From a virus (Duplodnaviria > Heunggongvirae > Uroviricota > Caudoviricetes), in IMG/VR virus record IMGVR_UViG_2541047775_000007: a DNA stretch of 43,098 bases; one strand, given 5' to 3'. Position 1 is the first letter of the stretch, and every line of letters starts with the position of its first letter. A program made the translations under genes and the position numbers. Below, piece by piece: positions 2,240 through 37,156 of the stretch. The notes beneath the pieces were generated by a model, which searched no databases, had not been told where the DNA came from, and saw nothing but the letters and a program-made list of their open reading frames with translations.

Positions 2240-2950
2240 CGCCTATAAGGCTCTCTTACCAGCCGCGCCCTAACAGGCGCACACGATCTGACATTTGCAT
2301 CCAACTTCGTTACTTACGGCCCGTAAACGGGCTGCCCGGATAGGGAATCGATAACTGCTCTCCCATTTTATCCTCTTCAAGCTGGTGCTTTATGTAATCC
2401 TGTATCTTCGCCGTGTTCTTACCCACTGTATCGACGTAGTACCCTCTGCACCAGAACTCCCTGTTCCTGTATTTGAATTTCAAATCACCAAACTGCTCGT
2501 AAAGCATCAGACTGCTTTTCCCTTTCAGATATCCCATAAACCCGGATACGCTCATTTTAGGCGGGATCTCCACAAGCATATGGATATGATCTGCACAGCA
2601 TTCAGCTTCCAGAATCCGTACGCTTTTCCACTCACACAGCTTTCTCAAAATACTGCCTATTGCTCTACGCTTCTCTCTGTAGAACACCTGTCTTCGGTAT
2701 TTTGGCGCAAAAACTATGTGATATTTACAGTTCCATCGGGTGTGCGCTAAGCTCTTTTCGTTCCCCATTGGGACCCCCTTTTGATTTCTTGTTTGACACT
2801 TGCAGTTGCCAGACCGCAAGGTGTTTTAACAAATCAAAAGGGGTTTTAATAACTGGCTCAAAGCTGAAAGCTTTCCGGAACCCCCAGCCTAGCTGGGGGT
2901 TTTCTGTGCACAAAAAACCCTCTGTAGTAACAGAGGGTTTTGTTCATTCA
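2240..2950 (-). mobile_element. IS200-like insertion sequence (boundaries approximate)
   Basis: Y1/HUH transposase ORF plus two strong hairpins upstream of it (acccccagc/gctgggggt near 2886-2908 and aaaccctctg/cagagggttt near 2908-2938), typical of the IS200 left-end structured region; ends not mapped precisely. Confidence 0.6.
2310..2768 (-). CDS. tnpA: IS200/IS605 family Y1 transposase TnpA (about 152 aa)
   Basis: Translation MGNEKSLAHTRWNCKYHIVFAPKYRR...HIHMLVEIPP...YIKHQLEEDK is recognisable as IS200 TnpA; ORF-track start at 2819 is probably an upstream extension. Confidence 0.88.
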   Translation of the reverse strand: MGNEKSLAHTRWNCKYHIVFAPKYRRQVFYREKRRAIGSILRKLCEWKSVRILEAECCADHIHMLVEIPPKMSVSGFMGYLKGKSSLMLYEQFGDLKFKYRNREFWCRGYYVDTVGKNTAKIQDYIKHQLEEDKMGEQLSIPYPGSPFTGRK

Positions 2951-3090: not shown

Positions 3091-3573
3091 CTATCTGGTC
3101 AGGGTGTCGTACTGTTTTTCACAGACTCTTCCGGCTTCGGCTGCCCGGTCAGCATACTCTGCCAGTTGTCTGTTTCTCTCGAGAGATTTACTGAGCACGT
3201 CGGCAAGCAAAACTCCGGTGTCTGCGGCTGACGTCCCAGCGCCGACAATGGCGTTATACTGCCTGAGCTGCTCACGGATGGCAACGAGCTGTTGCTGCAA
3301 CCGGCCAGCGCGAGCGGCAGCATCAAGAGCATCATTGCGCGCCTGGTCGATCCTCTGCTGCGCTTCACGTTCATTGATCGCTTTCTCCTGTTCGTAGTGC
3401 TGACGAATTCTCTCATCTTCGGTTTTGCGGTCTTCTTTCGCCTGCGCATACCCGGCGTCGTACTGACGACTGCCGTGTACACTCCAGGCAACAACTCCTG
3501 ATATGACCAGAACAGCAAGCACCGCCATGATAATCAACTGTTTCCGGTATGCTTTTACGAATGCCCAGATCAT
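3091..3573 (-). CDS. Rz-like i-spanin (160 aa)
   Basis: N-terminal TM helix, then charged coiled-coil; directly downstream of and overlapping the endolysin gene (ATGA overlap). Confidence 0.7.
3099..3335 (-). CDS. Rz1-like o-spanin lipoprotein embedded in the +1 frame of Rz
   Basis: Inside the 3099..3518 [16 protein letters not shown] gives a signal peptide with lipobox followed by a Pro-rich short mature peptide; fully embedded in Rz in a different frame. Confidence 0.5.
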   Translation of the reverse strand: MMLLMLPLALAGCSNSSLPSVSSSGSITPLSALGRQPQTPEFCLPTCSVNLSRETDNWQSMLTGQPKPEESVKNSTTP

Positions 3574-4199
3574 ACCGCCAGCACCTTACTGGCATTGATG
3601 TATCGCGCGCGCCGGTCGTCGATGCCGTTCCGGCCACCATTGATAATCAGAGTTACACGTGCAATATCGCCGGTATACTTCATGCATCCTTTGCTGGCAA
3701 AGAACCACGCCGCGCTACGAGCCGCGTATTCGTCCTGCGCCAGCAGTTCAGGACTCTCCAGCAGGTCAACCTTAAGACCGTTTCCACAGTCACGATAGTT
3801 ATTCAAACCGGTAACCTGGATAAGCCCGCGCCCACGGTAGTTCCAGCCATCACCAGGGGCATTGTTCCCCATGCGTTTGCTGTACACCAGATTGGCAATC
3901 GCTCTCTGGCGCTCAAGTGGCAATGGTGGTTCGCCTGCACGTCGCCCCAATGCGTTGGCCTGTCCCTGAGTGAGACGCCCAGCCCGAACAAAGTTAGCCA
4001 GTCCGCTGACGCTGTAGTTGAAATTCTCCTGCAACCGGGTGAAGCCTCCAGACTCATGCCCGACCTGAGCAATAAACATAGCCTGATCTTCTGGTTTGCT
4101 GATACCAAACTCTTTCATCGCAGAAGTTATATGCGAGAACCAGCGTGCGGCCAGTGCCTCGCTGATACCAGCAGCTCGCTGGAATTGTTTAATCTCCAT
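3570..4199 (-). CDS. endolysin, glycoside hydrolase family 19 (chitinase-like) type
   Basis: Motifs [20 protein letters not shown] are characteristic of GH19 phage endolysins; no N-terminal hydrophobic SAR segment. Confidence 0.88.
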
Positions 4200-4497
4200 G
4201 TTTAGACCTCGATACTTTGAAAATTTGAACGACGTTACCGCGCGTTTTAATAACCGCAGCTAGCATGACAGCGTTGATAATGACCTCAGATAAATCCACA
4301 GCCATTGGCGTACGTAACCAGATTGCATAGGCGACACGAACAGGAATACTGGCCGCAGCAACAATCAGGAAATAAGCAAGCCATCCTCCCCACCTTCGGT
4401 GTTGAGAGCCGTTACGCCGGAATGTGACAACGCGAATTGCTATGCCAGTGCAAATAACTGCATTGGTGATAAGCAAAAAAAACTCATGCGTTACCAT
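4189..4497 (-). CDS. holin-like membrane protein (3 predicted TM helices, charged C-terminus)
   Basis: Hydrophobic segments and C-terminal [19 protein letters not shown] tail; overlaps endolysin start. Confidence 0.5.
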
Positions 4498-4897
4498 CGT
4501 CTTTTCTCCCCGGAATTAACTCGCGTGGATTATCGGAACGGTGATAGAGCCATATACCAATACGCACAGCGACAATTGCTGACACGAATGCGCCTGCAGA
4601 GAAAACAATCCCTTTTTCAAAAGAGTCCTGCGTGATGGTAGGGATCAGGCTGGCTATGCCGATAAGAATTGATGCTGCTGGTTTGTAAAAGAGAAGGCCG
4701 CAAAGAAAGCTGAGCATCGACAGGAGCACCCGGCGACGGATGGGGTACTCTACTGCAGAGGTAACAAAAATTACCGCTCCAGCCAAAGCACCCAAAGCAA
4801 CCTCAGGAGGAACTCCTGCTATCACCGCCGCCAGAGAACTCATGCTAAGCCACTGATTTAAAGTTTCACTGGTTAGTTGAGCTGACATGTTTTCCAC
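4484..4897 (-). CDS. holin/antiholin-like membrane protein (3-4 TM helices)
   Basis: RBS ggtgga before ATG; multiple hydrophobic helices and charged C-terminal tail; sits upstream of the holin-like gene and endolysin. Confidence 0.5.
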   Translation of the reverse strand: MENMSAQLTSETLNQWLSMSSLAAVIAGVPPEVALGALAGAVIFVTSAVEYPIRRRVLLSMLSFLCGLLFYKPAASILIGIASLIPTITQDSFEKGIVFSAGAFVSAIVAVRIGIWLYHRSDNPRELIPGRKDDGNA

Positions 4898-5090
4898 CGT
4901 TTATATGCATAACAACCTCCTGAACAGTAAAGCATTACGCATAATAAACCATTTATGGTTTTTTGTTACTTTAACATCGTCAATTCCCTGTTTTTCATGC
5001 CGAGAATAAAGCTCACCTTTTACATGACTCTGAAGAAACAAACAGTGAAGAGCAGGTTGAATACCGCACCATTTAATGGCGCGGTAGCAG

Positions 5091-5387
5091 TCAAATAGAG
5101 AAATAAACACAAAAACAAAAAACAACAGGAACAGCAAAATCCAACAGACTTCCCACATCCCACACGCGTGGATCAAAACCTCCCCACCACGGCATGTTGA
5201 TACGTTTCCCTTTCCCAAACTTTTCTATCCAGCGATATTCTGCCTGGGTGTGTTCACGCGCAATGAAGAACGTACAACCGGCTATCGCACCGTAAGCCCA
5301 GTTTCCGGTAAAAATACCAACCAGTACCTGAGCCACAAAAGCGCAAAGCGAGTGAAGAAATGGAGTGACATCAATGCTCTTAATCAT
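5091..5387 (-). CDS. small membrane protein (98 aa), translationally coupled to the tailspike gene
   Basis: Start codon overlaps tailspike stop (ATGA); 2-3 hydrophobic segments. Confidence 0.5.
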   Translation of the reverse strand: MIKSIDVTPFLHSLCAFVAQVLVGIFTGNWAYGAIAGCTFFIAREHTQAEYRWIEKFGKGKRINMPWWGGFDPRVWDVGSLLDFAVPVVFCFCVYFSI

Positions 5388-7573
5388 GAAACTTCCCCAT
5401 TGGTTGAAAATATGGCTCCTCCAACGCCAAGTGTATTTCGTGTTGTGCTCAACCTCAGAGGGCTGGAGTCAGAATTAGAATATCCTGTAGCAGAAATAAA
5501 AGATCCTCCACTAATAGTCAACTGCGGAACATCGGCTATATCTGAATAAGTTCTGTCAGCAACAGTATTATTTATAGCCACATATGATCCAAAAAAACTT
5601 CTTATTGTTTGGTTTTTAACTTTACTTCCTTCAATGGTTATCCTACTACCACAGTCGGCAATAAATCCTGAATCTGCATCCAGCGTTGCATTCATAAAAG
5701 AAGCTTCAGATCTCTCTACATCAATCCATCTAATATCTTTTGTGGGATTTGCACCAAATACATGACAAATATTAGAGTTAAACCTTACACCATCTTGGAG
5801 GTGCATTAATTTTTTTATATCTGTACCCCATAGCCTTGGAAAATTAACAGATGCTCCTGCATGGCAATCAAATCCCAGCTCAGCCCCTGAGATATCTACA
5901 GCCTTTCCTGAAATAACAGCACCAGTGTCTGCATTAACGGCTGTTCCACAATTGCGCATATCATTACCAGCAACATCAACGCAACCCGCACCATCAATAC
6001 GCACACCAAGTGCACATCCATAAAAACCTTTTTCAATATTTGGTTCAAGGACTTTACCACTTGTTTCTGCATCACTTTCTTCAACGTCATGTCGTCTTGC
6101 ATCAACATATGCTGTATGAATGCAGGTTAATCCACGATATGAGCAATGTATAGTTTTATGGTCGCGTATATTAACATTTGAACCATCTCTTACATTCCAT
6201 CCTATATAACAATAGCTTGCACTTGACCCCTGAAAATCTGCTTTAACATTATAAATACAATTAACTGACGCAACCGTACTCTCTGTGCACCGTTCAAACT
6301 TGCTTACAGGCATTGATGCCTTGACATTATTTACCAGTTGCAGGGAAGAGTATCTGCTATAAGAAAAATCACATACGTAATACCCTTCTGGCATATATGC
6401 AGCAACACTTTCCTCATCAGGAGCACATCCGGTATGATATGCACTAATTTTTGCACCAAAACTACCATGAATTCCAACGTAGAACTTTCGAGCACCTGAA
6501 TACGGATAGAAATTAAGTTCAGCTTTTTGAGTTACAATAAATGCACAAACATCGCTATCATCTCTATTTTCTTCGATCTGAATAGCAAATACAGGACTTT
6601 TTGCTGCATCGCAAATGTAAAATAAATACTTGTATTCGTAATACGTTCTAACGATTTTAGTAAACAAACGAGTGTCAGAGAAAACCACTGAGTCTTCTGA
6701 TGTTATTTTAATCCAAGACAAATCAACACCTGAACTGAATTCAATTTGATAGTTGATAATATGCCCGGTCTTAATTCTTATTTCGCAGAAAGCATTACCA
6801 CCATCCCACATAGGTCTCATTGACTGGGCTGCAATGATTGCATCTTTGAGTGTAGGGTAATCACCCCATTCGCCAACAGTAATAACAAAAGTATAATATG
6901 AGTTAAAAACAGCGGCATTTTTGCCTTTGGATATCAACTCCTTAATCATAAAAATATTATCTTCGTAATCACAAGGAGAAATTATATCCCTCATTTTGCT
7001 TTGAAATGTTCGTTGTCTTGCCCCGCTTCCTGACGGTATAAACCAACCAAAACCACCAACAACCCCGGCGATTGCAGCATCGACATAATTACGCATTGAG
7101 CGATTATTTACAGCATCCTGCTCAAGTGATGGATCTGCAAGGTTAGAAATTCTGTTTTGCTTTGCATCGTAATATTTTGCAAGCAGAGAGGGCTTCATCA
7201 ATGCACGTCTGAACCACCCAAAACATTGCTGGATCAGCATCGTCAGGTAGTCAAAGGCATCTTCATGCACTTCGGGGAAAAATTTTCCCTGATTGCGAAG
7301 GTCTGTCTCCTGCACTACATCAAGCACACGATCTATCGTAATTCGCCATCCAGTAGCAAGCGGAGACGGAAGAACCACAGAACCGCCACTATAAGTGCCC
7401 GCCCCAGTTACCGTATAACCGGTATCCAGGACCAATTCTGTTACGTTCCCGTTCAGGTCAGACACCTGAACAACCAGGTCTGATTTTCTGAAAATTCGAA
7501 AAGTATACGGAAACGATGTCGTAACGCCGTTACCGGTGTATTCGTTGTGGTCAACTTCGGTTGAGACCGTCAT
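5384..7573 (-). CDS. tailspike / tail fibre with conserved N-terminal virion-attachment domain and probable beta-helix receptor-binding/depolymerase body (729 aa)
   Basis: N-terminus MTVSTEVDHNEYTGNGVTTSFPYTFRIFRKSDLVV matches the conserved podovirus tail-fibre/tailspike N-domain motif; AT-rich body with many Cys and Asn/Gly repeats; RBS ggag before ATG. Confidence 0.8.
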   Translation of the reverse strand: MTVSTEVDHNEYTGNGVTTSFPYTFRIFRKSDLVVQVSDLNGNVTELVLDTGYTVTGAGTYSGGSVVLPSPLATGWRITIDRVLDVVQETDLRNQGKFFPEVHEDAFDYLTMLIQQCFGWFRRALMKPSLLAKYYDAKQNRISNLADPSLEQDAVNNRSMRNYVDAAIAGVVGGFGWFIPSGSGARQRTFQSKMRDIISPCDYEDNIFMIKELISKGKNAAVFNSYYTFVITVGEWGDYPTLKDAIIAAQSMRPMWDGGNAFCEIRIKTGHIINYQIEFSSGVDLSWIKITSEDSVVFSDTRLFTKIVRTYYEYKYLFYICDAAKSPVFAIQIEENRDDSDVCAFIVTQKAELNFYPYSGARKFYVGIHGSFGAKISAYHTGCAPDEESVAAYMPEGYYVCDFSYSRYSSLQLVNNVKASMPVSKFERCTESTVASVNCIYNVKADFQGSSASYCYIGWNVRDGSNVNIRDHKTIHCSYRGLTCIHTAYVDARRHDVEESDAETSGKVLEPNIEKGFYGCALGVRIDGAGCVDVAGNDMRNCGTAVNADTGAVISGKAVDISGAELGFDCHAGASVNFPRLWGTDIKKLMHLQDGVRFNSNICHVFGANPTKDIRWIDVERSEASFMNATLDADSGFIADCGSRITIEGSKVKNQTIRSFFGSYVAINNTVADRTYSDIADVPQLTISGGSFISATGYSNSDSSPLRLSTTRNTLGVGGAIFSTNGEVS

Positions 7574-7677
7574 GTTAAATCTCCAGATAGTCGCAGCACC
7601 CGTTGCGCCGCATATCTGGTTATTCTATTACCTGAAAAACCACATATGGATAAAAAGGCTGTAAATACGAATAGATA

Positions 7678-7692
7678 TTACCTTTCAGGTAA
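7678..7692. promoter_or_regulatory. operator-like palindrome TTACCTTTCAGGTAA (motif A)
   Basis: Perfect 5-bp inverted repeat with 5-bp spacer; one member of a family of at least 13 near-identical sites. Confidence 0.6.
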
Positions 7693-7729
7693 TTTGCAAA
7701 ACGTGCTGGATAGCAAACAAATTATTTGC

Positions 7730-7749
7730 TACTGTATAAATATACAGTT
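7730..7749. promoter_or_regulatory. LexA (SOS) box TACTGTATAAATATACAGTT
   Basis: CTGT-N8-ACAG core at 7732-7747 with AT-rich spacer, 18/20 match to the E. coli LexA consensus; 20 bp upstream of the start codon at 7769. Confidence 0.75.
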
Positions 7750-7768
7750 ATTGCATGGAGAAGATAAG

Positions 7769-8026
7769 ATGCAGCGGTATCACTATCCACTGGAAGACGG
7801 ATTTACCGAAAGGATTCACACGCCGGGAGGCGTCAGGTCACTGGTGGAGGGATCGCACTTGATGAAATTACTCCGGGATCTCGATAAGGATGGATTTAAT
7901 GTCGATGGCCCACTTGCCGAACTGACTGCACTGATTAACTACGTTACCAGCTCACAGATGTCTATGCGGGATCTGCAAACACATCTCGACTATTGTGCCG
8001 AACAATTACGAAAACAAACCCGGTAA
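7769..8026 (+). CDS. small antirepressor-like protein (85 aa), paralog of the C-terminal domain of the 9177..9833 antirepressor
   Basis: RBS ggag 8 nt before ATG; sequence aligns with the Ant C-terminus (shared GV..L.E.S.LM.LL..L..DG..V.G..AELT....Y......RD.QTH..Y); LexA box immediately upstream. Confidence 0.65.
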   Translation: MQRYHYPLEDGFTERIHTPGGVRSLVEGSHLMKLLRDLDKDGFNVDGPLAELTALINYVTSSQMSMRDLQTHLDYCAEQLRKQTR

Positions 8027-8030
8027 ATTT

Positions 8031-8052
8031 AAAGGCCGCAAGAGCGGCCTAT
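8031..8052. terminator. bidirectional intrinsic terminator (aggccgc-aaga-gcggcct) between convergent genes
   Basis: 7-bp GC stem flanked by T/A-rich runs on both sides; nearly identical hairpin recurs at 11282-11299. Confidence 0.55.
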
Positions 8053-8777
8053 CGTTTCGCTTTGTGCTCGTCCCAGCACGTTTTGCACCATGCCATTAAG
8101 CCATCCGCATTTTGATTATTAGGGTAAAAGCTTGTTCGTTTTCTGCGGACATTACAAATTGGGCACCACTTCATATGGCGTGTATTCTTTGGGCCATCGA
8201 GACACCTTGCACACCACTTAGTCAATCCATCTGGATTTTTTGACGATTTCCTGAATTTTTCATATGGTAGGTTTATTCTGCATCGCAAGCACTGCTTGCT
8301 ACCACTTGAAACTCTGTTAGCTGATTCTTCTTTTGGCGGCGATACAGAAGGTATTCTTGCTGGCTCTGATACTGCCTGAGGTGCTTTTTTAGATGACTGA
8401 GACGATATGTCATCACCAGGGAATCTTCCATGATATGCCGGACGCATTGACACTCCAGGTGGAAGCTCAGCTGTAAACGGCTTTGGCTGAATCAGTTGCC
8501 TCTCTTTTGCTAACTCCTGCTGTTTATAATATGTCTGGATTACCGCACTATCATAAGCAGGAGGTGCGGAAATATTAGGCGCATTACCTCCAGTTTTTTG
8601 AAACTGAGTAGAGGTGTGTTCTATCACCTGTGTACGATTAATCGTTATCTCCCCATCTTCGGTCTTTATCGTTTTGTTATGATTAACGACCGTACGATCA
8701 GAGATCTTAGTCTTGTTCTGGTTGATAACGTAAATAATCACCGCAACCACACCAACAACTATCCAGAAAACTTCCAT
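8049..8777 (-). CDS. membrane-anchored protein with C-terminal tandem CxxC zinc-ribbon-like motifs (242 aa)
   Basis: RBS gaggaaaag before ATG; N-terminal TM helix; long low-complexity linker; C-terminus CLRC...NPDGLTKWCARC...WCPIC...NADGLMAWCKTC (duplicated DGL..WC..C unit). Confidence 0.7.
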   Translation of the reverse strand: MEVFWIVVGVVAVIIYVINQNKTKISDRTVVNHNKTIKTEDGEITINRTQVIEHTSTQFQKTGGNAPNISAPPAYDSAVIQTYYKQQELAKERQLIQPKPFTAELPPGVSMRPAYHGRFPGDDISSQSSKKAPQAVSEPARIPSVSPPKEESANRVSSGSKQCLRCRINLPYEKFRKSSKNPDGLTKWCARCLDGPKNTRHMKWCPICNVRRKRTSFYPNNQNADGLMAWCKTCWDEHKAKR

Positions 8778-8797
8778 TGCTTTTCCTCACAATAACA

Positions 8798-8812
8798 TTA
8801 CCTTAAAGGTAA
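8798..8812. promoter_or_regulatory. operator-like palindrome TTACCTTAAAGGTAA (motif A)
   Basis: Perfect palindrome 21 bp upstream of the minus-strand start at 8777. Confidence 0.6.
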
Positions 8813-8861
8813 TATCTTGCTTTCAGGTGATCAAGCGTTAAACGCAATCAACCAAATACGG

Positions 8862-8905
8862 TTGATTTTAATATTTCTTCGCGTTTATCATTACCTTTGC
8901 GGTAA
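8862..8905 (+). promoter_or_regulatory. candidate promoter (TTGATT -35) with overlapping operator TTACCTTTGCGGTAA (8891-8905)
   Basis: -35-like hexamer followed by a motif A palindrome; lies about 270 bp upstream of the antirepressor gene. Confidence 0.45.
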
Positions 8906-8942
8906 ATTTACATTGCACTCCTCTTGTGCCATAGTAATCGGG

Positions 8943-9018
8943 CACTGGCAAAATCCAGTGCCGGGATTGGTCTCCCGGATTACTAAGTGGCGCATACCAC
9001 GCCAGACGTGGTTTTTTT
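8943..9018 (+). promoter_or_regulatory. structured leader: three consecutive hairpins ending in an intrinsic terminator (ccacg-ccaga-cgtgg plus T7)
   Basis: Hairpins cactgg/ccagtg (8943-8960), ccggga/tcccgg (8961-8978), and terminator 8996-9018; no credible ORF. Confidence 0.45.
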
Positions 9019-9176
9019 ATGCGTATAGCACAGTCATGCCAGAATTATGGTGGGCTGAATGGGGGTCCGAAAGGACGCCGGTACCACTTAGGCCGGTAAG
9101 ACCAACTCCGTTCAGTTCACCACCATCTGATTGGTCTCAGCGGTGGTGATGTAATTCGCTAAGTGGAGACGCCATC

Positions 9177-9833
9177 ATGAACGCTCAACTCATCCCCGTA
9201 TTCAACGGCACTATATCTAACGAAACAGCCCTACTTTGTAATGCCCGCGATCTGCACACTTTTTTAGGTGTTAAAAAGGTGTTTGCAGCATGGATTACAA
9301 ATCGCATATCAGAATACGAATTCATTGAAAATCAAGACTATATTTTGCTTTCCAATTTGGGAAAGCAAACATCTGGTAGAGGCGGCCACAACCGCAAAGA
9401 GTACCACCTCACCCTTGATACAGCCAAAGAGCTGGCGATGGTCGAGCGTAACGAAAAAGGTCGCCAGGTGCGACGCTACTTCATTGAATGCGAGAAACGT
9501 TTAAGACAACAAGAAACAAAAGTGGAGAAGGTCTTGTCAGGCTTCATGCCCGCCATTATGGAGGCGATCAAGCTGGAAGACAAAAAAGAATACAGCGCCC
9601 CACTGAAGCCCGGCTACCGCAGCCTGATTCATTCTCCGTCTGGTGTTCTCGGACTGACGGAGAACTCACTGCTGATGAATCTGCTGAACCAGTTACAGGA
9701 AGACGGGCACGACGTATCGGGCGCGGCGGCGGAGCTGACCACCATGTTCTGCTACATCGTCGGTGTGAGCAAATGCCTGCGTGATATCCAGACGCACGCG
9801 GAGTACATCAACGACAAGGCAGGGTTCTTCTGA
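9177..9833 (+). CDS. phage antirepressor, AntA/AntB-type N-terminal domain plus C-terminal domain shared with the 7769..8026 protein (218 aa)
   Basis: N-terminus MNAQLIPVFNG...KVFAAWITNRISEYEFIENQDYIL...RYFIECEKRL resembles AntA/AntB antirepressor family; intrinsic terminator at 9843-9865 follows. Confidence 0.7.
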   Translation: MNAQLIPVFNGTISNETALLCNARDLHTFLGVKKVFAAWITNRISEYEFIENQDYILLSNLGKQTSGRGGHNRKEYHLTLDTAKELAMVERNEKGRQVRRYFIECEKRLRQQETKVEKVLSGFMPAIMEAIKLEDKKEYSAPLKPGYRSLIHSPSGVLGLTENSLLMNLLNQLQEDGHDVSGAAAELTTMFCYIVGVSKCLRDIQTHAEYINDKAGFF

Positions 9834-9906
9834 CAGAACGGCGGCACAGGGATGTGCCTTTAAATAATTCTGTACAGATTGCAGACCGGGGGTGAATAGC
9901 GTACTA

Positions 9907-9921
9907 TTACCTTAAAGGTAA
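9907..9921. promoter_or_regulatory. operator-like palindrome TTACCTTAAAGGTAA (motif A)
   Basis: Identical to the 8798 site; 27 bp upstream of the start at 9948. Confidence 0.6.
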
Positions 9922-9947
9922 ACCATGTGTTTACATGAGGAGGAGAT

Positions 9948-10157
9948 ATGGGATTTTGGTTCGCTCGTACAAAAACGAGGGATAATGCACCCAGCCCTCA
10001 GGCAAAAAATGCAGAAGTTCCGGCGTCAGCGCAGGTTAACAAGCGTGGTGGTGTGTATATCTCATCACAGCAAATTTCTGAGCTTCCTGAGGTTAAGGAG
10101 ATGCGTCGTCTCGCTGCTGCAATCGTTAAACAGGATCTTGCCACTGTAAGGAAATAG
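9948..10157 (+). CDS. small hydrophilic protein (69 aa), first gene of a two-gene cassette
   Basis: Very strong RBS gaggaggagat before ATG; stop overlaps start of downstream gene. Confidence 0.6.
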   Translation: MGFWFARTKTRDNAPSPQAKNAEVPASAQVNKRGGVYISSQQISELPEVKEMRRLAAAIVKQDLATVRK

Positions 10158-11023
10158 TGTTGTTAGCTCTTCTAATTATCCCCATTCTGGTTAGTGGTTA
10201 TATTATGATAACCGCTAACCAGTATCATTATTTCCGTTTATACCGACATGAAGGCCAGCTTCTTTATATGAAAGTAGCTGCATTAGGTACATATTGCCTT
10301 GTTGCTTCGGTAATAATTGCCGCATTTATAAAATATAAATATCCTGATTTTCACCTAGTTCACGATATGGTGGAAACTTTTAATGTAACGTCAAAACCAG
10401 AAACAGATAGAATTTACATGTGGCTGCTTCTTCTCTCAGCCACATCCATTTGCTTCTCTTTGTGTTATGTGTCTGTTGTGTGGGTGAAAGATTTTCTTCT
10501 TGGTTGTTTTTATAAACGTGATATTTACGAGCAAAAAACAGAGGCAATGAAGGCCAGAGTACTGCGAAAAACTTACTCGCAAGGTTCTTTAGACTTACTA
10601 TTGCTTGATGCTATTGAATCGGATCCTAAACGACCAATGCTGATTACTTTATCATCAAACAAAGTGTATGTTGGAATAATAAATGGTTCTGGTGAACCAA
10701 CGGAAAATCAGGGTCCGCATCAGCACATATCTTTTGTTCCTTTAATGTCAGGATACAGGAACAAAGACAACTTATCTGTCACATTCACTAATGCTTATCC
10801 AGGAGAAATACAGGTCAAGCGGACTGCAGCAATAAGAGGAATTAGCAGAAAGAAAGTGCCAGGACTTGAGATCATGGTGTCTATTGACGAAATAAGTTAT
10901 ATATCATGGTTTGATTTTGAAGTATATAAAGCAACAAATAACAAAGTAGAATCCAGGGGGCACGTTATTCGTGTTACCAAAAATGGAAGAAATATATATC
11001 AAAGAAATAGCAAAAAAGAATAG
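10157..11023 (+). CDS. AT-rich membrane protein (288 aa; about 3 N-terminal TM helices plus about 170-aa C-terminal domain), candidate superinfection-exclusion/defence protein
   Basis: GTG start with RBS aaggaaa, overlapping upstream stop; markedly lower GC than flanking phage genes; strong terminator downstream. Confidence 0.6.
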   Translation: MLLALLIIPILVSGYIMITANQYHYFRLYRHEGQLLYMKVAALGTYCLVASVIIAAFIKYKYPDFHLVHDMVETFNVTSKPETDRIYMWLLLLSATSICFSLCYVSVVWVKDFLLGCFYKRDIYEQKTEAMKARVLRKTYSQGSLDLLLLDAIESDPKRPMLITLSSNKVYVGIINGSGEPTENQGPHQHISFVPLMSGYRNKDNLSVTFTNAYPGEIQVKRTAAIRGISRKKVPGLEIMVSIDEISYISWFDFEVYKATNNKVESRGHVIRVTKNGRNIYQRNSKKE

Positions 11024-11043
11024 CCCGCGCTGCGGGCTTTTTT
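11023..11043 (+). terminator. rho-independent terminator (gcccgc-gct-gcgggc plus T6)
   Basis: GC stem followed by TTTTTT immediately after the 10157..11023 stop. Confidence 0.7.
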
Positions 11044-11115
11044 GTGGACGAAACAAAAGCCAGTGCTACACTCATTGACGCCACATTGAGGTGGCTTATA
11101 GATGGAAATTTCACA

Positions 11116-11277
11116 ATGAAAAAAGCATTTGCTGCACTGTTCGTTTTGTTGTCTCTGGTAGCTTCAACTCAGGCCTTTGCCGGTCGTTGTCAGCACGACA
11201 GCGATACTGCCGCTGACGGCTCCCGCTGCGGTGGGCGTTCTGCGGATTCCCGCCCGGGTGGCGGTGGCATTCGTTAA
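11116..11277 (+). CDS. small secreted Gly/Cys-containing peptide (53 aa precursor, about 31 aa mature)
   Basis: MKKAFAALFVLLSLVASTQAFA signal peptide, then GRCQHDSDTAADGSRCGGRSADSRPGGGGIR; candidate promoter TTGACG-N17-ATAGAT upstream; weak RBS. Confidence 0.45.
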   Translation: MKKAFAALFVLLSLVASTQAFAGRCQHDSDTAADGSRCGGRSADSRPGGGGIR

Positions 11278-11299
11278 AAACAAGGCCGCGAAAGCGGCC
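11274..11299 (-). terminator. intrinsic terminator (aggccgc-gaaa-gcggcct) ending the minus-strand late operon
   Basis: 7-bp GC stem; T-run on the minus strand; separates convergent transcription units. Confidence 0.6.
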
Positions 11300-11300
11300 T

Positions 11301-11312
11301 GTGACATGTCAC
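11301..11312. other. perfect 12-bp palindrome GTGACATGTCAC (motif C copy 1)
   Basis: Overlaps the stop codon of 11309..11605 and abuts the terminator; same palindrome at 31123-31134 and near-identical at 28858-28869. Confidence 0.6.
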
Positions 11313-11617: not shown

Positions 11618-11791
11618 TTACCCAGTAAAAATAAGAGGCCTCCCCTCAATAAGGCTTGCAACAAGAACTACTCCCTGCACAACAAAGATGAACCAGCAAA
11701 TAGCTTGAGTCTGAGGGTTAAGAAAATATTTGTAGCGGTCAATAAATAACAATACACCAGAAATTATCACACTCAAAATAATTAAAAACAC
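11618..11791 (-). CDS. candidate small membrane protein (about 57 aa), below the ORF-track size cut-off
   Basis: GTG start 4 nt after RBS aaggaag, directly after the stop of 11801..14275; two hydrophobic segments. Confidence 0.35.
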   Translation of the reverse strand: MFLIILSVIISGVLLFIDRYKYFLNPQTQAICWFIFVVQGVVLVASLIEGRPLIFTG

Positions 11792-11800
11792 AACACTTCC

Positions 11801-14275
11801 TTATTGCGGAGTGACATCCTGAGGTCGCCACCAGTATGTCTGGTTAAACTCTTTCTTCGAACGTTGCTCCATTTTACGCAAATAGCCTGGTGAAAAATAC
11901 TCCTGCATCTGGTTAAAGATCATGTGATCGAGAGCCGCCTTCAAGTACCAGAGATTCGCACCAGGCATCAAACCTTTCCCCAGCTTCACCAGATCACCAC
12001 CAGTCTGCTCACTCTTCCCTTCCACAGCATTTAACGGTATGCCCTGAGCAATCTTCACTACGTCATCAACTAGACCAGCTACCGGGCCAAGCATCGACGC
12101 CAGCGCGCCGCTTCCGTACCTAGTGTGATCTGACAATAAAAAGTCACCGTAAAGGCCAAGACCACCACCTTTCAGTAGAGCACCAAGCCAGAATTTTGCG
12201 GCATCTTCTCCTGTCATCTCTCGAGGATTACGACCAGACGCAAGGTCGTTAAGTTGTTGCGACAAAGCGCCAAGAATGGTCGTACTGGCAATAAACGTCG
12301 CAATATATGCCGCACGCCCACCAGCAGACGGCATACCCATAGCGCGTGACCAGTGACGCATAACAACCGAGATAGGGAACGATTTAAACAGGAAAACACT
12401 TCTCGTTAATTCACCTTTCCATGTTCCACGCTGAATACCAGAACCGGTTATCAGTTGCTCACGTGCTCCCGGTGTAATAACAGCCATATCAACTTCTTCA
12501 GTTACGGCACCGAGCAGTTTACGCATTGCCTCAAATTTCACGCGTTCAGGCTCACCAAGATGTTTAACTGCTGAATCAGGGATACGCATAATGCTTTCCG
12601 GTGTCAGCATCGTATTATTACCGTTCCCCCAGTCCTCCTGTTGCGCCAACTTCCATACGCTCCAGTCTGTGTCAGTAATCCCTTTGCTTTTCAGGATACG
12701 AAAATCAGAGTCATCGAGGCGACGAAGGTCTGGTGTCCGTGACACTACTTCTCCCAGGCTTCCCATCATGGTTACGCCATAGGCGCGCTTGTGCGCATCT
12801 GACCATGCTGTAAGCCCACTGGCACGCATTACCGCCGTTGCAGCCCAACGAGACACAGACGGCCCCATATTATCCATCGCCCAGCGGTTAACGCTGCCAA
12901 GTAGAGATTCCATCGCCAGACCAGCGCGGCGCGCCCGCGCAAGTTCTGTACGGTTCGTTGGGTCCATAGCTTCAAGCTGGTTGCGGAATAACTGGTTCAT
13001 TGGAAGGTTGGTAACCTTCGCAGACAGATACATGGTTCCAAGATCAGAGAACGATGACAGCAACGCGGATCCGAGTCTGCTGGCAACCAGCCAGTTGCGG
13101 ATATTGTCAGACCATCGCGCGATGTGCGGATTCGCTACAGGCTGTGTCTTTCCGGAAATAAAGTTGTACAGATTCTCTGTGTTGTTCGCCAGCCGCTCGA
13201 CTTTACCGGTTTTACTCGGGTTAGCTGTTGCCGTTTCTGCCTTCACCTGATCAAGAAGAGAGCGGAAAACATGATCGGGGTTTGGACCATATGTTTCCAC
13301 CAGTGCAATATCTTTACTGATACCTTCCAGGTGACCGACCATGATTTCCCATAGAGAGCGATCGCCATAAAGTTGCTGATATTGCAGATAGGAATCTGCA
13401 TCTTTGAAATGTATCTGTCGTGATGCATTACCACGGTTAGCACGTGCGCCGGAAATTCGCATTCCGGTATCAGTAAGCTTATTCAGCCCACCAGTAGCGA
13501 TCGTGTTATAAGCCTCTCCAAGAAATGCAGACAACTCGGCATCGTTCATCAGTTGTCCATCGGCTCGGGTATAATATTTGCGATCCAGCTTACCTATAAC
13601 ATCGCTAACCCATTTATCTTTTGATACCGCCCCAACCTTTTCCATAGAATGATGTTGAGGGATCCCCCAGTTTTCGAGATAGCCAATGTCCCCACCAGCA
13701 TCATTAAACCGGCGGCGCAGTAGCTCTGTCACTTCTCTCCACGCCTTAGCACCTTTTCTTGCTTTAGCATTGCCAGTATTTTGCCCCAGCATTTCATATA
13801 CCAGGTCACGTACGCCCGCTTCATCTTCAAACAGACCAAAAAAGCGAGGATCAACTGCTTCGAATGCCTCCTGCAATTGACTCAATGCATAATCACGGGT
13901 GGCTTTTGTTCTGGATTCAACAGAGAGGAAATTCGATTTACCGTCTGCATTAAAAGCAATAGTACGGTTAAGAGCGCCAAGTTTCCCATCAGCCCCTTGA
14001 TAGCTATTGATAAATTTATCCAATCTCTGACGTGCGGCTATAGTGAGGGCCACACGACGTTTCTTTAATGCCGCTTCTCGCTGTAATTCTTCAGATGCCA
14101 ATTGTGCTGCACGATACAGCCGCTCTGATTCGGAAAGTTGTCGCCACGACATCGGGTCATCACGAGCAATGGAGCGCATATTTCGATAAATGCGGTCTTC
14201 AATGTTCTGTATTTCTCGCGCCGTTAACGTGCGCTGCGCCGCCTGCTGGACCGCTTGTATACATTCCTGTCTCAT
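11801..14275 (-). CDS. large internal virion / ejection protein (824 aa)
   Basis: Position at the end of a T7-like structural gene order; size and composition fit internal core proteins. Confidence 0.55.
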   Translation of the reverse strand: MRQECIQAVQQAAQRTLTAREIQNIEDRIYRNMRSIARDDPMSWRQLSESERLYRAAQLASEELQREAALKKRRVALTIAARQRLDKFINSYQGADGKLGALNRTIAFNADGKSNFLSVESRTKATRDYALSQLQEAFEAVDPRFFGLFEDEAGVRDLVYEMLGQNTGNAKARKGAKAWREVTELLRRRFNDAGGDIGYLENWGIPQHHSMEKVGAVSKDKWVSDVIGKLDRKYYTRADGQLMNDAELSAFLGEAYNTIATGGLNKLTDTGMRISGARANRGNASRQIHFKDADSYLQYQQLYGDRSLWEIMVGHLEGISKDIALVETYGPNPDHVFRSLLDQVKAETATANPSKTGKVERLANNTENLYNFISGKTQPVANPHIARWSDNIRNWLVASRLGSALLSSFSDLGTMYLSAKVTNLPMNQLFRNQLEAMDPTNRTELARARRAGLAMESLLGSVNRWAMDNMGPSVSRWAATAVMRASGLTAWSDAHKRAYGVTMMGSLGEVVSRTPDLRRLDDSDFRILKSKGITDTDWSVWKLAQQEDWGNGNNTMLTPESIMRIPDSAVKHLGEPERVKFEAMRKLLGAVTEEVDMAVITPGAREQLITGSGIQRGTWKGELTRSVFLFKSFPISVVMRHWSRAMGMPSAGGRAAYIATFIASTTILGALSQQLNDLASGRNPREMTGEDAAKFWLGALLKGGGLGLYGDFLLSDHTRYGSGALASMLGPVAGLVDDVVKIAQGIPLNAVEGKSEQTGGDLVKLGKGLMPGANLWYLKAALDHMIFNQMQEYFSPGYLRKMEQRSKKEFNQTYWWRPQDVTPQ

Positions 14276-14280
14276 TTAAT

Positions 14281-16083
14281 TTAACCTCTCAAGAAACACG
14301 CCACAGCAACATCAAACAGGCTGGAATCCTGTATTGCCTGCTCACTTTCCCTGTTCGCTTCATCCAGTACTTCACGCGCACTGCGCGATTGTGGATTACC
14401 ATCATCATCCAGCACGGTGATTATCATGTCAGGTGATTCAAGCAGCGAGTCTTCAGCTATACGCAGATCAATATCTCCTGCCGGATCTGCCATCATTTTT
14501 TGTTCTGTCTGTTGCAATATCTTACCGGGCTCAAAAGGAGCTACTTCTTCTGGCGTCCTGACCTCTGCTGTTTTATAGAATGAAACAGCCTGAGCATTAA
14601 GTTCACTTTCTGCCTGCTGTCGTCGTGCCAGTTCTGCTCGAGCTTCAAAAAACTGACCTCCAGGCTCGTGCGGCGCCAACGCGTTACGAGAAAATTCCAG
14701 GCGTTCTTGTGCCTGCCGGATTCGTTGGTCAATATCGCGAAGTCTGGCCTGTTTATCTGATCGAGCACGAGATAAAGCCTTACCGCTACCGGTTGGCTCT
14801 TCTGCAAGAATTTGTGCGCGCTGTTCAGTGAGATTTTCAATAATTCGTTGGCTATTAGCGATTTCAGACTGGTAAACCTTTCTATCGCCACGCGACAAAA
14901 GCTGCGCGGCCTGTTCTTCAAGCAACCGATTTTCTATAGCGCGCGCCGTTACTCCATCATCTACAGATGACAGAGCCTCATTAACTGCCTGAGACAGCAG
15001 ACTCTTGCGACCAGGAATTTCACTGAAAGATGCAGACTCAACAATGCTGGCAACGTCTACAGGTCTCCCCTGGCTAACATCAGACATGGCTTTTCGCAGA
15101 GCCTGAATGTGCGAATTACGCGAAAGCACGTTGATCGGAACGCCGGGAGCAATATCAATTTCAGCATGATGAGCGGCATTCGCCGCCAGTGCAGCATCAA
15201 TATCAACTGGTGAAAAATTTGGTGCGCTTGTAGACTCGCCGCGAGAGTTAATAAATCTGCCGACACCACCAAACGCCACCCCAAGAACAGCATCAATAGC
15301 AATTGCCTGTCGATCCAACACATCATACTGGTTAGCCATTTCGCTATAGCCACCATCACGAAGCGTTTTTGCAGTAAGCCCACGCTGTGCCATACCGAAC
15401 GCAATATTTGTACCTGCGGCATAGGCAATATCTGGCGTTGCACGTACTGCTGTTGCTGCGGCGCGTCGCACTGAACTCTCACCCGTCCGCGCAAGCTGAG
15501 CCGCCACACCTTCCGCCAGCGCACCACCAGCACGTAACCCGAGGCTCATAGGGATCAGTGTTCCGGCACCAGCAGTAATACCCTGCACTAATCCCGCTTC
15601 CTGCGCCGTCCTGAAATCAACACCCTGTGCTGTCAGCCGTTCAAACTCAGAAAAACCCTGTAGCGAAGTTACCGCCGCAGCACCTCCGACCGGACCACCG
15701 AGCGTTGTACCGATAACAGCCTGCCCGCCCATATCGAACAACCCATAAAGAACCTGCCCGGCGGTTCCGGTTGTCGCGGCATCAGGCGTCAGCCGCTTAA
15801 CCTGCTGCTCTGCTAGTTTTCTCTGCTCGGCAATGTATGAAACTGAAGTGTCATTGAGCGAGGTGTTTTCGTTAACAAACTGAGCAATCGGGGATACGAT
15901 TTTATCCATCCCTGCCCAGAGCAACTGATCTGGCTTTGCCACCAGCCCGGAGTACAAACCAGACAATGCCGCTCCTACAGCATTGTCGAAAAAACCAACA
16001 TCGCTGTTAAAGCCAGCTGGATTTGATGCTGCTTCGTCAAGCTGCTGATTCTGGTTTACTGGATTAAGGCCAAAGTAACTCAT
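14281..16083 (-). CDS. internal virion / ejection protein (600 aa), Gly/Ala-rich
   Basis: Within the run of internal-core genes; start overlaps upstream stop. Confidence 0.5.
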   Translation of the reverse strand: MSYFGLNPVNQNQQLDEAASNPAGFNSDVGFFDNAVGAALSGLYSGLVAKPDQLLWAGMDKIVSPIAQFVNENTSLNDTSVSYIAEQRKLAEQQVKRLTPDAATTGTAGQVLYGLFDMGGQAVIGTTLGGPVGGAAAVTSLQGFSEFERLTAQGVDFRTAQEAGLVQGITAGAGTLIPMSLGLRAGGALAEGVAAQLARTGESSVRRAAATAVRATPDIAYAAGTNIAFGMAQRGLTAKTLRDGGYSEMANQYDVLDRQAIAIDAVLGVAFGGVGRFINSRGESTSAPNFSPVDIDAALAANAAHHAEIDIAPGVPINVLSRNSHIQALRKAMSDVSQGRPVDVASIVESASFSEIPGRKSLLSQAVNEALSSVDDGVTARAIENRLLEEQAAQLLSRGDRKVYQSEIANSQRIIENLTEQRAQILAEEPTGSGKALSRARSDKQARLRDIDQRIRQAQERLEFSRNALAPHEPGGQFFEARAELARRQQAESELNAQAVSFYKTAEVRTPEEVAPFEPGKILQQTEQKMMADPAGDIDLRIAEDSLLESPDMIITVLDDDGNPQSRSAREVLDEANRESEQAIQDSSLFDVAVACFLRG

Positions 16084-27847: not shown

Positions 27848-27884
27848 TTGACATTTAACGCACAAATTATTACCTTTAAGGTAA
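27848..27884 (+). promoter_or_regulatory. promoter-like TTGACA (27848-27853) with operator TTACCTTTAAGGTAA (27870-27884)
   Basis: Consensus -35 hexamer followed by a motif A palindrome, pointing toward the tRNA island. Confidence 0.5.
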
Positions 27885-28206: not shown

Positions 28207-28283
28207 GTGGCATTAGCTCAGTTGGACAGAGCAACCGCCTTCTAAGCGGTTGGTCGCAGGTTCGAATCCTGCATGCCACGCCA
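28207..28283 (+). tRNA. tRNA-Arg (anticodon TCT), phage-encoded
   Basis: Manual cloverleaf: acceptor gtggcat/atgccac, D-arm gctc...gagc, anticodon stem accgc/gcggt with loop CTTCTAA, T-arm gcagg-ttcgaat-cctgc, discriminator G plus encoded CCA. Confidence 0.85.
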
Positions 28284-30419: not shown

Positions 30420-31012
30420 TGATTGCCATCCTGACGTTCTTTCAGTCTCTTCCTGGCTGCCGCTATGCGATCAGCAATTGTCACATTCACATTAACATCC
30501 AGGCGTTCTTTGAACGCGTTGACGTCGACGTGCTTACCAATCAGTTCGAGGTTCTTCACCTTGTCAGGCCATTTAATTTTTTTGAGGATTGTCTCTATCG
30601 AATCCTCGTCCATGTTCATGATGGTAGATGACAGATCAAAGCCACTAAGCGTAGTGCGCCAGATTTTCGGCCACTCGCGGATTGGCTTAAGGCTTCCATC
30701 GTCGTTGAGGATATCAATCACGTCCATCTGGTCGATCTCCACCAGGCGCATGAGAACGTAATCAGCACTGACGCGCATTCGTTTGTTGCGCTCCTCCATC
30801 AACTCGGCAATCCGTTTTTGAATGCGTTCATCGCGCATCATGACACTGGCTTTAACTGCCGCTGTATTTGGGGAGAATCCTGCGTTAATCGCAGCCTGAC
30901 TCTGGTTTTCAGGCGTTTTGATGTATGACTGGCAATAAGCCTCCTGCATTGCTGTGAGCGGCTTAAATTGCGTTGATTTGCGTTTATAGGTTTTAGGTTC
31001 AGCAGGCATCAT
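30416..31012 (-). CDS. terminase small subunit (about 198 aa; ORF-track start at 31090 probably over-extended)
   Basis: Overlaps terL start; basic N-terminus MMPAEPKTYKRK; motifs recalled from small terminase families. Confidence 0.6.
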   Translation of the reverse strand: MMPAEPKTYKRKSTQFKPLTAMQEAYCQSYIKTPENQSQAAINAGFSPNTAAVKASVMMRDERIQKRIAELMEERNKRMRVSADYVLMRLVEIDQMDVIDILNDDGSLKPIREWPKIWRTTLSGFDLSSTIMNMDEDSIETILKKIKWPDKVKNLELIGKHVDVNAFKERLDVNVNVTIADRIAAARKRLKERQDGNQ

Positions 31013-31054
31013 AACCACCCTGGTAATTGTTACCGTCGTGGTAATAGTAACATG

Positions 31055-34748: not shown

Positions 34749-34825
34749 TTACCTCTAAGGTAATTAAAAACCACATAAGACACGAAATCAATAGAGTTTA
34801 GAATATTTTGTTACCCAACAGGTAA
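34749..34825. promoter_or_regulatory. two operator palindromes TTACCTCTAAGGTAA (34749-34763) and TTACCCAACAGGTAA (34811-34825)
   Basis: Motif A sites in the intergenic region between the P-like gene and the DUF1064 gene; first site overlaps the RBS. Confidence 0.55.
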
Positions 34826-36756: not shown

Positions 36757-36771
36757 TTACCTTTGAGGTAC
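36757..36771. promoter_or_regulatory. operator-like site TTACCTTTGAGGTAC (motif A, one mismatch)
   Basis: Palindrome next to the motif B palindrome aaccatatttggtt (36738-36751). Confidence 0.5.
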
Positions 36772-37093: not shown

Positions 37094-37156
37094 TCACCTA
37101 TAAGGTAACAAAAATCAAGGATAGTTACCCATGAGGTGCATTTACCTGTTGGGTAA
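37094..37156. promoter_or_regulatory. immunity-region operator cluster: TCACCTATAAGGTAA (37094-37108), TTACCCATGAGGTGC (37125-37139), TTACCTGTTGGGTAA (37142-37156)
   Basis: Three motif A sites between divergent Cro-like and repressor genes (OR1-3-like arrangement). Confidence 0.65.

Follow-up and report, generated by a model that had tools for sequence, protein, structure and literature searches.

A probable secondary-immunity locus with two antirepressors and exchangeable cargo in an epsilon15/phiV10-like prophage

The immI region of phage P22 consists of sieA-mnt-arc-ant together with the sar RNA, and that of P1 and P7 of a C1-controlled promoter, the c4 antisense RNA, icd and ant. In phage SPC32H, LexA reportedly represses ant, and the prophage repressor Rep is said to be inactivated by Ant and not by RecA-mediated cleavage, as Kim and Ryu described it in 2013. 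SPC32H Rep binds palindromic DNA as a tetramer, which tetrameric Ant splits into dimers (PMC9638917). In Gifsy-1, the isrK-orf45-anrP locus contains a 45-codon open reading frame (ORF) coupled to anrP through an AUGA overlap (PMC4825925). The present study concerns a block of about 3.7 kb (about 7574-11308) in the IMG/VR virus record IMGVR_UViG_2541047775_000007, a stretch of 43,098 nt that we call the window. With a probability of roughly 0.8, this island is the secondary-immunity (antirepressor) locus of a Uetakevirus prophage, enlarged by mobile cargo. Most of its parts are elements of known kinds, newly combined. In this combination, two antirepressors share one Rep-binding domain and their gating is split: the small one is assigned to LexA, and the large one to a repressor operator together with a terminator and an antisense RNA that occurs in specificity types.

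The best matches of the window, by megablast against phage records and by tblastn, all belong to Uetakevirus, and its annotated relatives phiv142-3, TL-2011b and phiV10 place it in the epsilon15/phiV10 group. By these matches the phage is an epsilon15/phiV10-like member of the genus Uetakevirus; a P22-like identity is ruled out by the same searches. The island lies between minus-strand genes for the tail fibre and for internal virion proteins, from which it differs in strand and composition, as the ORF listing and base composition show (Table 1). In SPC32H, the same gap contains only the 261-nt ant and a gene for a membrane protein of 46 amino acids (aa). Parts of the block occur in 898 of 5426 complete E. 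coli genomes, and at least 80% of it in just 3 of the 5426. Because the SPC32H gap is nearly bare and because of these counts, the block is real, accessory and mosaic. Throughout the relatives, the core that has been conserved in this gap consists of the antirepressor modules. The original prediction, drawn from the letters of the window, had listed here a small antirepressor, a CxxC membrane protein, an AntA antirepressor, a cassette of a small protein and an AT-rich membrane protein, and a secreted peptide. All of these items, with their ORFs, domains, LexA box, operators and terminators, are present, and the comparison of presence and absence among relatives that it called for agrees with its accessory label.

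The small antirepressor gene encodes an 85-aa protein whose residues 2-84 match the 'Anti-repressor protein' of SPC32H (PDB 5D50_E) at E = 3.5e-46, and its counterpart in SPC32H/N is annotated ant. On this alignment it is the orthologue of SPC32H Ant. The start at 7769 is preferred to that of a 126-aa ORF from 7646, the form that had been predicted, on the basis of annotation in relatives and of the 5D50_E alignment. Upstream lies a LexA box with the consensus CTGT-N8-ACAG, which SPC32H and all of the examined E. coli relatives retain; its distance to the ATG is 22 nt in both the window and SPC32H. The repressor gene rep, located outside the island, encodes a protein that matches PDB 5D50_A ('Repressor') at E = 3.9e-42, and a Pfam search found in it two helix-turn-helix domains only and no Peptidase_S24 (autocleavage) domain. 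It is, by these matches, a homologue of SPC32H Rep without the RecA-dependent autocleavage domain, and it is the predicted target of both Ant proteins. Both proteins match chains of the solved Rep-Ant complex of SPC32H (PDB 5D50), and this LexA/small Ant/non-cleavable Rep part is biology already known.

The large antirepressor has 218 aa. Its N-terminus is an AntA domain (PF08346, E = 6e-26), as had been foreseen, and residues 137-213 match 5D50_E at E = 4.7e-14; this Ant domain is 43% identical to the small Ant. Judged by these alignments, the protein joins an AntA domain to another copy of the Ant domain known from SPC32H. The region before it (8778-9176), at first sight a spacer of ~400 bp, houses two RNA genes instead, an isrK-family RNA with its terminator and a C4 antisense RNA; an ORF at 8817-9149 (110 aa) was rejected as coding, being covered by both. 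Since the isrK terminator lies upstream of ant, read-through is needed to reach the gene. The single-stranded C4 segments a' and b' are each perfectly complementary to two targets, one per set. The first set lies inside isrK, and the a2 target of the second overlaps the Shine-Dalgarno sequence of ant. In the leader of the large ant, no icd-like ORF coupled to ant was found. The sole ORF there, of 37 codons (9037-9149, plus strand), overlaps C4, stops 27 nt before the ant ATG and is uncoupled from it; by position it recalls orf45 of Gifsy-1 or icd of P1.

Both RNAs precede a large antirepressor gene in nine relatives, in which the N-terminal domain is AntA, Bro-N or ORF6N. Across these relatives, the a'/b' segments and both target sets change together, so that the Uetakevirus prophages of E. 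coli fall into at least four types of C4 specificity. The window and phiv142-3 share one type (a' CCACTTAG, b' AGACCAA); TL-2011b, phiV10, AST20 and FDAARGOS_1257 have another (a' CCTTTTAG, b' ACGCCAA); STEC346 has a third (a' CCTTTGTAG, b' ACGCCAA) and strain 4/4 a fourth (a' CCACTTAG, b' ACGCCAA). This triple co-variation is direct comparative evidence for a functional C4 pairing. Strain 4/4 has the appearance of a recombinant between two of the types.

Further evidence comes from the palindrome TTACC-N5-GGTAA. With up to 1 mismatch allowed, it occurs at 14 sites in the window against 0.69 expected, a number reached by 0 of 100 shuffles. Four of the sites are inside the island (7678, 8798, 8891 and 9907). 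Others flank rep (37094, 37142, 37854 and 37916, with a two-mismatch site at 37125), where a strong promoter-like site directed rightward has its -10 hexamer overlapped by one of them. The sites are retained at homologous places in relatives including SPC32H; that at 7678 has the same position and distance in SPC32H and is also found in E. coli relatives. Before isrK, tandem promoter-like sites follow each other as TTGATT-18-TATCAT and TTTACA-17-CATAGT. The 8891 operator abuts the -10 hexamer TATCAT of the first and the -35 hexamer of the second, and the second predicts a +1 at the Rfam start of isrK, 8942. We infer that TTACC-N5-GGTAA is the operator of Rep and that the island is probably repressor-controlled. 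If it is the Rep operator, most of the island would be silent in the lysogen and would open on derepression, since most island promoters carry it.

Taken together, these elements suggest the following course of events. DNA damage would remove LexA, whereupon the small Ant would be produced and would disassemble Rep. The TTACC-N5-GGTAA promoters would then open; beside rep these are the early promoters, and in the island those that serve the 242-aa gene, isrK-C4-ant and the cargo slot. The large Ant would reinforce or broaden derepression. C4 would otherwise keep the large Ant untranslated and would confer type specificity, as in P1 versus P7.

Downstream of the large antirepressor gene lies the cargo slot. 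In an alignment of six loci, conservation covers the end of ant along with the promoter and operator, and directly beyond these the homology breaks off. In the sampled E. coli genomes, the slot holds YafO-family toxin modules, a TacA antitoxin gene, DUF4760 or DUF2335; other states are two small ORFs, an empty slot, and the pair of 69-aa and 288-aa genes that occupies it in the window (30 of 5426 genomes). A literature search on DUF4760 and DUF2335 found nothing relevant. The alignment argues that the slot is recombinationally exchangeable. The gap of TL-2011b (5505-5690 and 7609-8793 of its locus) contains both a P1-type module of isrK, C4 and a Bro-N antirepressor and a P22-type set of an Arc-like gene, Ant and the sar RNA (RF00262), together with a YafO toxin module.

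That the island might be a P22-type immI (mnt-arc-ant with sar RNA) in a P22-like phage, the organisation named in the original prediction, is very improbable. Its analogous position between internal virion and tailspike genes and the Arc, Ant and sar of TL-2011b speak for it. However, the best matches are all to Uetakevirus, the regulation present is that of LexA/Ant and C4, and in the window neither a sar RNA that reaches the Rfam gathering score nor an Arc/Mnt-like ORF was found; no island ORF has a Pfam match to ribbon-helix-helix repressors of this type. Thus, of the proposed likeness to P22, the position and the equivalence to immI hold, whereas the P22-like phage, Arc/Mnt and sar do not.

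The cargo of the window matches the predicted cassette of a small protein and an AT-rich membrane protein. The stop of its 69-aa gene and the start of its 288-aa gene share one base (TAGTG), the two being translationally coupled, and the stretch 10100-11000 has 36-39% G+C. In the AF2 model of the 69-aa protein (pLDDT 68), a disordered N-terminus precedes a beta-hairpin and a long helix; the core motif of the protein is RV..RGGV.I.S.EI..LPEV.EM. The 288-aa protein is predicted to have three membrane helices and a cytoplasmic Sm/LSm/Hfq-like domain, modelled as an N-terminal helix and a five-stranded bent beta-sheet as in the Sm/LSm fold; the closest known fold group comprises the Sm/LSm/Hfq and WYL small beta-barrel domains. 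In this protein, K169, Y171, S198, G199, R201 and Y214 are invariant, and the domain part comprises residues 130-288. An MscS-like channel was considered and found no support: just the Sm domain of ~70 residues aligns, and MscS is absent from the top 60 matches. Foldseek against viral structures (BFVD) gave no match at E ≤ 0.001, with TM-scores ≤ 0.28, and PDB sequence searches with profiles of both cassette proteins gave chance-level matches only. A profile search of 1.84 billion representative proteins found 2339 relatives of the 288-aa protein at E ≤ 0.001, with 903 of them reaching E ≤ 1e-10; almost all are of full length. The family amounts to about 2,300 representative clusters at 50% identity and has no Pfam, PADLOC or NCBIfam model. 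A literature search on Sm-like membrane defence proteins found nothing relevant. One member of the family, P0119 (322 aa), ends in the H-NS-type DNA-binding motif TWSGKGRRPKW (Pfam Histone_HNS, E = 1.2e-09), which places its C-terminus in the cytoplasm, near DNA. For the idea of a nucleic-acid-binding ring oligomer, this tail is only a hint.

The small partner lies immediately 5' of the membrane-protein gene in every assessable locus, about 55 in all. A hidden Markov model (HMM) detected it in 24 of 28 loci, it is visible in two that the HMM missed (Bowmanella and a metagenome-assembled genome of Acidobacteria), and it was found in 31 of 31 assessable IMG/VR loci. The pair is conserved from Enterobacterales to Acidobacteria. 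Four kinds of location were seen: the Uetakevirus gap (24 IMG/VR loci, and Providencia, where the pair is upstream of isrK), the prophage end adjoining the integrase gene, the interval between gpA and the portal gene of P2-like prophages, and two-gene islets among ordinary chromosomal genes. The first three, found in phages, are classic sites of cargo or defence genes, and the third, the P2 gpA-gpQ locus, is an anti-phage hotspot (PMC9122126). Homologues of the 69-aa protein also occur without the Sm-like protein. In E. coli 4/4 (3524-4471 of its locus), one precedes a DUF2335 membrane protein; in Serratia phage Kashira, a virulent phage of ~150 kb, and in a relative (4001-6263 of their loci), the protein that follows has 667 aa and a DUF8224 domain.

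From the models and the pairing, the two genes appear to be a mobile unit with a membrane-anchored effector that probably binds nucleic acid or a ligand and possibly forms rings. Our preferred reading places its action at the inner membrane, where it would most likely serve phage exclusion, abortive infection or a toxin-like effect and would come on with derepression. The operator on the cassette promoter argues that, in the phage of the window, it acts after derepression and not in the quiet lysogen. A true anti-phage role is doubtful. Equally tentative is the view that the pair is the first example of a two-gene system for phage exclusion or abortive infection that is widespread and as yet has no name. 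As part of that view, a membrane-anchored Sm-like ring with three membrane helices in each subunit might sense nucleic acid at the inner membrane and gate or perturb the membrane under regulation by the small hairpin-helix protein.

Two further genes complete the island. The 242-aa protein has one N-terminal membrane helix, a low-complexity linker rich in Q, P and S, and two CxxC...CxxC zinc ribbons that resemble those of endonuclease VII, HNH and Lar-like PHROGs; in phage endonuclease VII and HNH proteins, such ribbons stand at the N-terminus. It is the predicted CxxC membrane protein and is encoded on the minus strand. Searches of PDB, PADLOC and NCBIfam gave no match for it, and its sole Pfam match, Stc1, is below the cutoff. 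Some relatives have the gene, TL-2011b has it as a pseudogene, and phiV10 lacks it. The 53-aa gene, which corresponds to the predicted secreted peptide, encodes a signal-peptide protein and is conserved in most relatives. It has a promoter-like site upstream (TTGACG at 11076), the only one among the island units that is operator-free, and this makes it the best candidate for expression in the lysogen. Terminator-like hairpins are over-represented, with 17 found against 4.0 ± 2.5 expected. Those at 8033-8050, 8996-9012, 11022-11038 and 11283-11300 stand between the units.

These two genes and the pair are central to an alternative in which the island is a defence or superinfection-exclusion island active in the lysogen, like sieA, with the antirepressors as incidental neighbours. 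The 69-aa and 288-aa pair, the zinc-ribbon protein and the 53-aa peptide would then shield the lysogen. We regard this as rather unlikely. It draws on the places where the pair occurs, next to integrases at prophage ends and in the gpA-gpQ locus of P2, which has been validated as an anti-phage hotspot (PMC9122126), on the YafO and TacA toxin-antitoxin genes that occupy the same slot in relatives, on the operator-free promoter-like site and own terminator of the 53-aa gene, and on the low G+C of the cassette, which suggests horizontal acquisition. Yet none of the eight island proteins matches a PADLOC-DB 2.0 family at E up to 0.1, and the PHROGs that they match include none with an exclusion annotation. 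The 69-aa, 288-aa and 53-aa proteins had no above-threshold match in Pfam, NCBIfam or PADLOC, and PHROGs gave just families of unassigned function. Moreover, a repressor-type operator lies over or beside the promoters of the 242-aa gene and of the cassette, so that both are predicted to be silent in the lysogen, and the antirepressor modules are what all relatives conserve in the gap. According to the original prediction, exclusion or defence functions and an undescribed system are most likely to be located at this position. A hypervariable cargo gap and an uncharacterised cassette that recurs in hotspots speak for this; the missing PADLOC match and the operator on most island promoters speak against it, and the idea is only a lead.

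The pair could instead be a toxin-antitoxin-like or host-shut-off module that serves the phage's own lytic growth and is not anti-phage, the small upstream protein being a neutraliser or regulator placed before a membrane-active effector. The gene order, small gene first with the one-base overlap, would suit this, as would the strict pairing across phyla and in a two-gene chromosomal islet, the promoter with a repressor operator just after ant, and the bona fide toxin-antitoxin cargo in the same slot of relatives. Neither cassette protein resembles a known toxin or antitoxin, however, and the presence of the small gene before DUF2335 (E. coli 4/4) and DUF8224 (Kashira) fits a general adaptor or regulator better. 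We therefore consider such a module improbable, though far from absurd.

Several points weigh against the reading of the island as an antirepressor locus enlarged by mobile cargo. The assignment of TTACC-N5-GGTAA to Rep follows from the position of the sites only. The 7678 site, ~50 bp 5' of the promoter with the LexA box, may belong to the divergent tail-fibre promoter instead. The combined action of isrK read-through and C4 is extrapolated by analogy with P1/P7 and Gifsy-1, and the leader has neither icd nor a coupled ORF. As to the cargo, a classical lysogen-protecting defence role becomes less likely if its promoter is under tight repression in lysogens, and database searches found for the cassette no similarity to known defence, exclusion or toxin families.

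Table 1. Positions of the island features, of rep and of the flanking genes in the window.
Feature	Position	Strand	Basis or remark
Tail-fibre/tailspike gene	5384-7573	-	ORF listing, annotated relatives
Operator palindrome TTACCTTTCAGGTAA	7678-7692	.	between divergent tail-fibre and small ant genes
LexA box CTGTATAAATATACAG	7732-7747	+	perfect; 22 nt 5' of ant ATG
Small antirepressor Ant, 85 aa	7769-8026	+	PDB 5D50_E, phrog_450
Bidirectional terminator hairpin	8033-8050	.	between convergent ant and 242-aa genes
242-aa protein	8049-8777	-	phrog_6762
Operator	8798-8812	.	upstream of minus-strand 242-aa gene
Operator	8891-8905	.	between tandem promoter-like sites, 8862-8935 (+)
isrK-family RNA with terminator	8942-9018	+	Rfam RF01394, 67.7 bits vs gathering 50
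C4 targets inside isrK	b1 8967-8973; a1 8983-8990	+	complementarity
Terminator of isrK	8996-9012	+	hairpin search
C4 antisense RNA	9043-9127	+	Rfam RF01695, 61.2 bits vs gathering 45
C4 single-stranded segments	a' = CCACTTAG 9084-9091; b' = AGACCAA 9099-9105	+	complementarity, co-variation
C4 targets before ant	b2 9131-9137; a2 9159-9166	+	complementarity
Large antirepressor, 218 aa	9177-9833	+	AntA N-terminus, SPC32H-Ant-like C-terminus
Cargo-slot promoter-like site TTGCAG-17-TACTAT with operator 9907-9921	9879-9921	+	operator overlaps -10 hexamer and +1
69-aa partner gene	9948-10157	+	phrog_5739
288-aa membrane-protein gene	10157-11023	+	ORF listing
Bidirectional terminator	11022-11038	.	after cassette
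53-aa signal-peptide protein	11116-11277	+	phrog_14503
Terminator hairpin	11283-11300	.	closes 53-aa gene (+) and virion operon (-)
Small membrane-protein genes, 98 aa and 57 aa	11309-11605 and 11618-11791	-	variable among relatives
gp17-like virion gene	11801-14275	-	ORF listing, annotated relatives
gp16-like virion gene	14281-16083	-	ORF listing, annotated relatives
Prophage repressor Rep, 194 aa	37212-37796	+	outside island; PDB 5D50_A, Pfam

Some observations concern the surroundings of the island. The virion operon ends with the 98-aa and 57-aa membrane-protein genes, and the island with its terminators separates the tail-fibre and lysis genes from this operon. A minus-strand TTGCAA hexamer adjoins the 7678 operator (window 7574-7700), with the same geometry in SPC32H; it may belong to a promoter of their own, under repressor control, from which the tail-fibre and lysis genes are expressed. 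G+C is 33-41% in the distal two thirds of the tail-fibre gene (5600-7000), compared with ~47-55% in neighbouring virion genes. The low G+C of this part and of the cassette is consistent with recent horizontal exchange of both. A full-length STnc490 Hfq-binding small RNA lies near the lysis genes (2778-2901, minus strand; RF01405, 146 bits against a gathering score of 56).

Operators also occur far from the island and rep. A strong promoter-like TTGACA site (27848-27884) is overlapped by a perfect operator (27870-27884) and aimed at a tRNA-Arg(UCU) gene (28207-28283, plus strand), which stands on the strand opposite to the surrounding head and packaging genes. Further operators lie upstream of the small-terminase gene (31012-31044), between the lambda-P-like replication gene and a DUF1064 gene (34749-34825) and beyond the cro-like gene (36757-36771). 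The pairs 34749/34811 and 37854/37916 have a 62-bp spacing in common. By analogy with P1 C1, the dispersed sites suggest a repressor regulon, perhaps with looping by the Rep tetramer.

If the above arrangement operates as proposed, three known control layers, LexA, a protein antirepressor and a c4-type antisense RNA, are stacked on one lysis-lysogeny switch. The co-variation of the c4 types among E. coli prophages predicts that heteroimmunity has a second layer, based on RNA. Such a layer could govern cross-induction of co-resident Uetakevirus prophages, including those of Shiga toxin-producing (STEC) and enterotoxigenic E. coli (ETEC) strains. If the operator controls the slot, its cargo would be on at derepression and not in the quiet lysogen, a timing that is unusual for accessory genes of this sort. 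The pair of the small and Sm-like membrane proteins is the one element without a known kind and is a candidate for a new membrane-acting defence or toxin family.

Compared with P22, the window has no mnt, arc or sar, another Ant domain and another phage lineage; the likeness lies in the analogous map position and in an antirepressor with extra control layers and exclusion-type cargo nearby. With Gifsy-1, the island shares an isrK-family RNA with its own terminator directly 5' of the antirepressor gene. In contrast to the Gifsy-1 arrangement, ORF 9037-9149 is separated from ant by a gap of 27 nt, there is no AUGA overlap, and C4 covers the stretch.

SPC32H agrees with the window in genus, in the position between the gp17-like and tailspike genes, in Ant, in the LexA box and in the upstream TTACC-N5-GGTAA. 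The Rep proteins are likewise homologous and non-cleavable; they match over their full length and are clearly diverged. Relative to SPC32H, the window has ~3.3 kb extra, which accommodates the zinc-ribbon membrane protein, isrK-C4 with the larger Ant, the cassette and the secreted peptide.

The C4 pairing mirrors the P1/P7 immI architecture that Citron and Schuster reportedly described in 1990. Unlike P1 and P7, the window has no icd; its a2 target directly covers the ant Shine-Dalgarno sequence, its upstream target set sits inside an isrK-type terminated RNA, and the Rep-binding domain of its antirepressor is of the SPC32H type. In common with P1 and P7, a C4-family RNA lies 5' of ant on the same strand and has two antisense segments and two target sets, one upstream and the other covering the ribosome-binding site. 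A candidate operator of the primary repressor adjoins the promoter-like sites, and further sites of this kind are scattered through the genome, a spread that resembles the many dispersed C1 operators of P1. Finally, the co-varying specificity types resemble the heteroimmunity of P1 versus P7.

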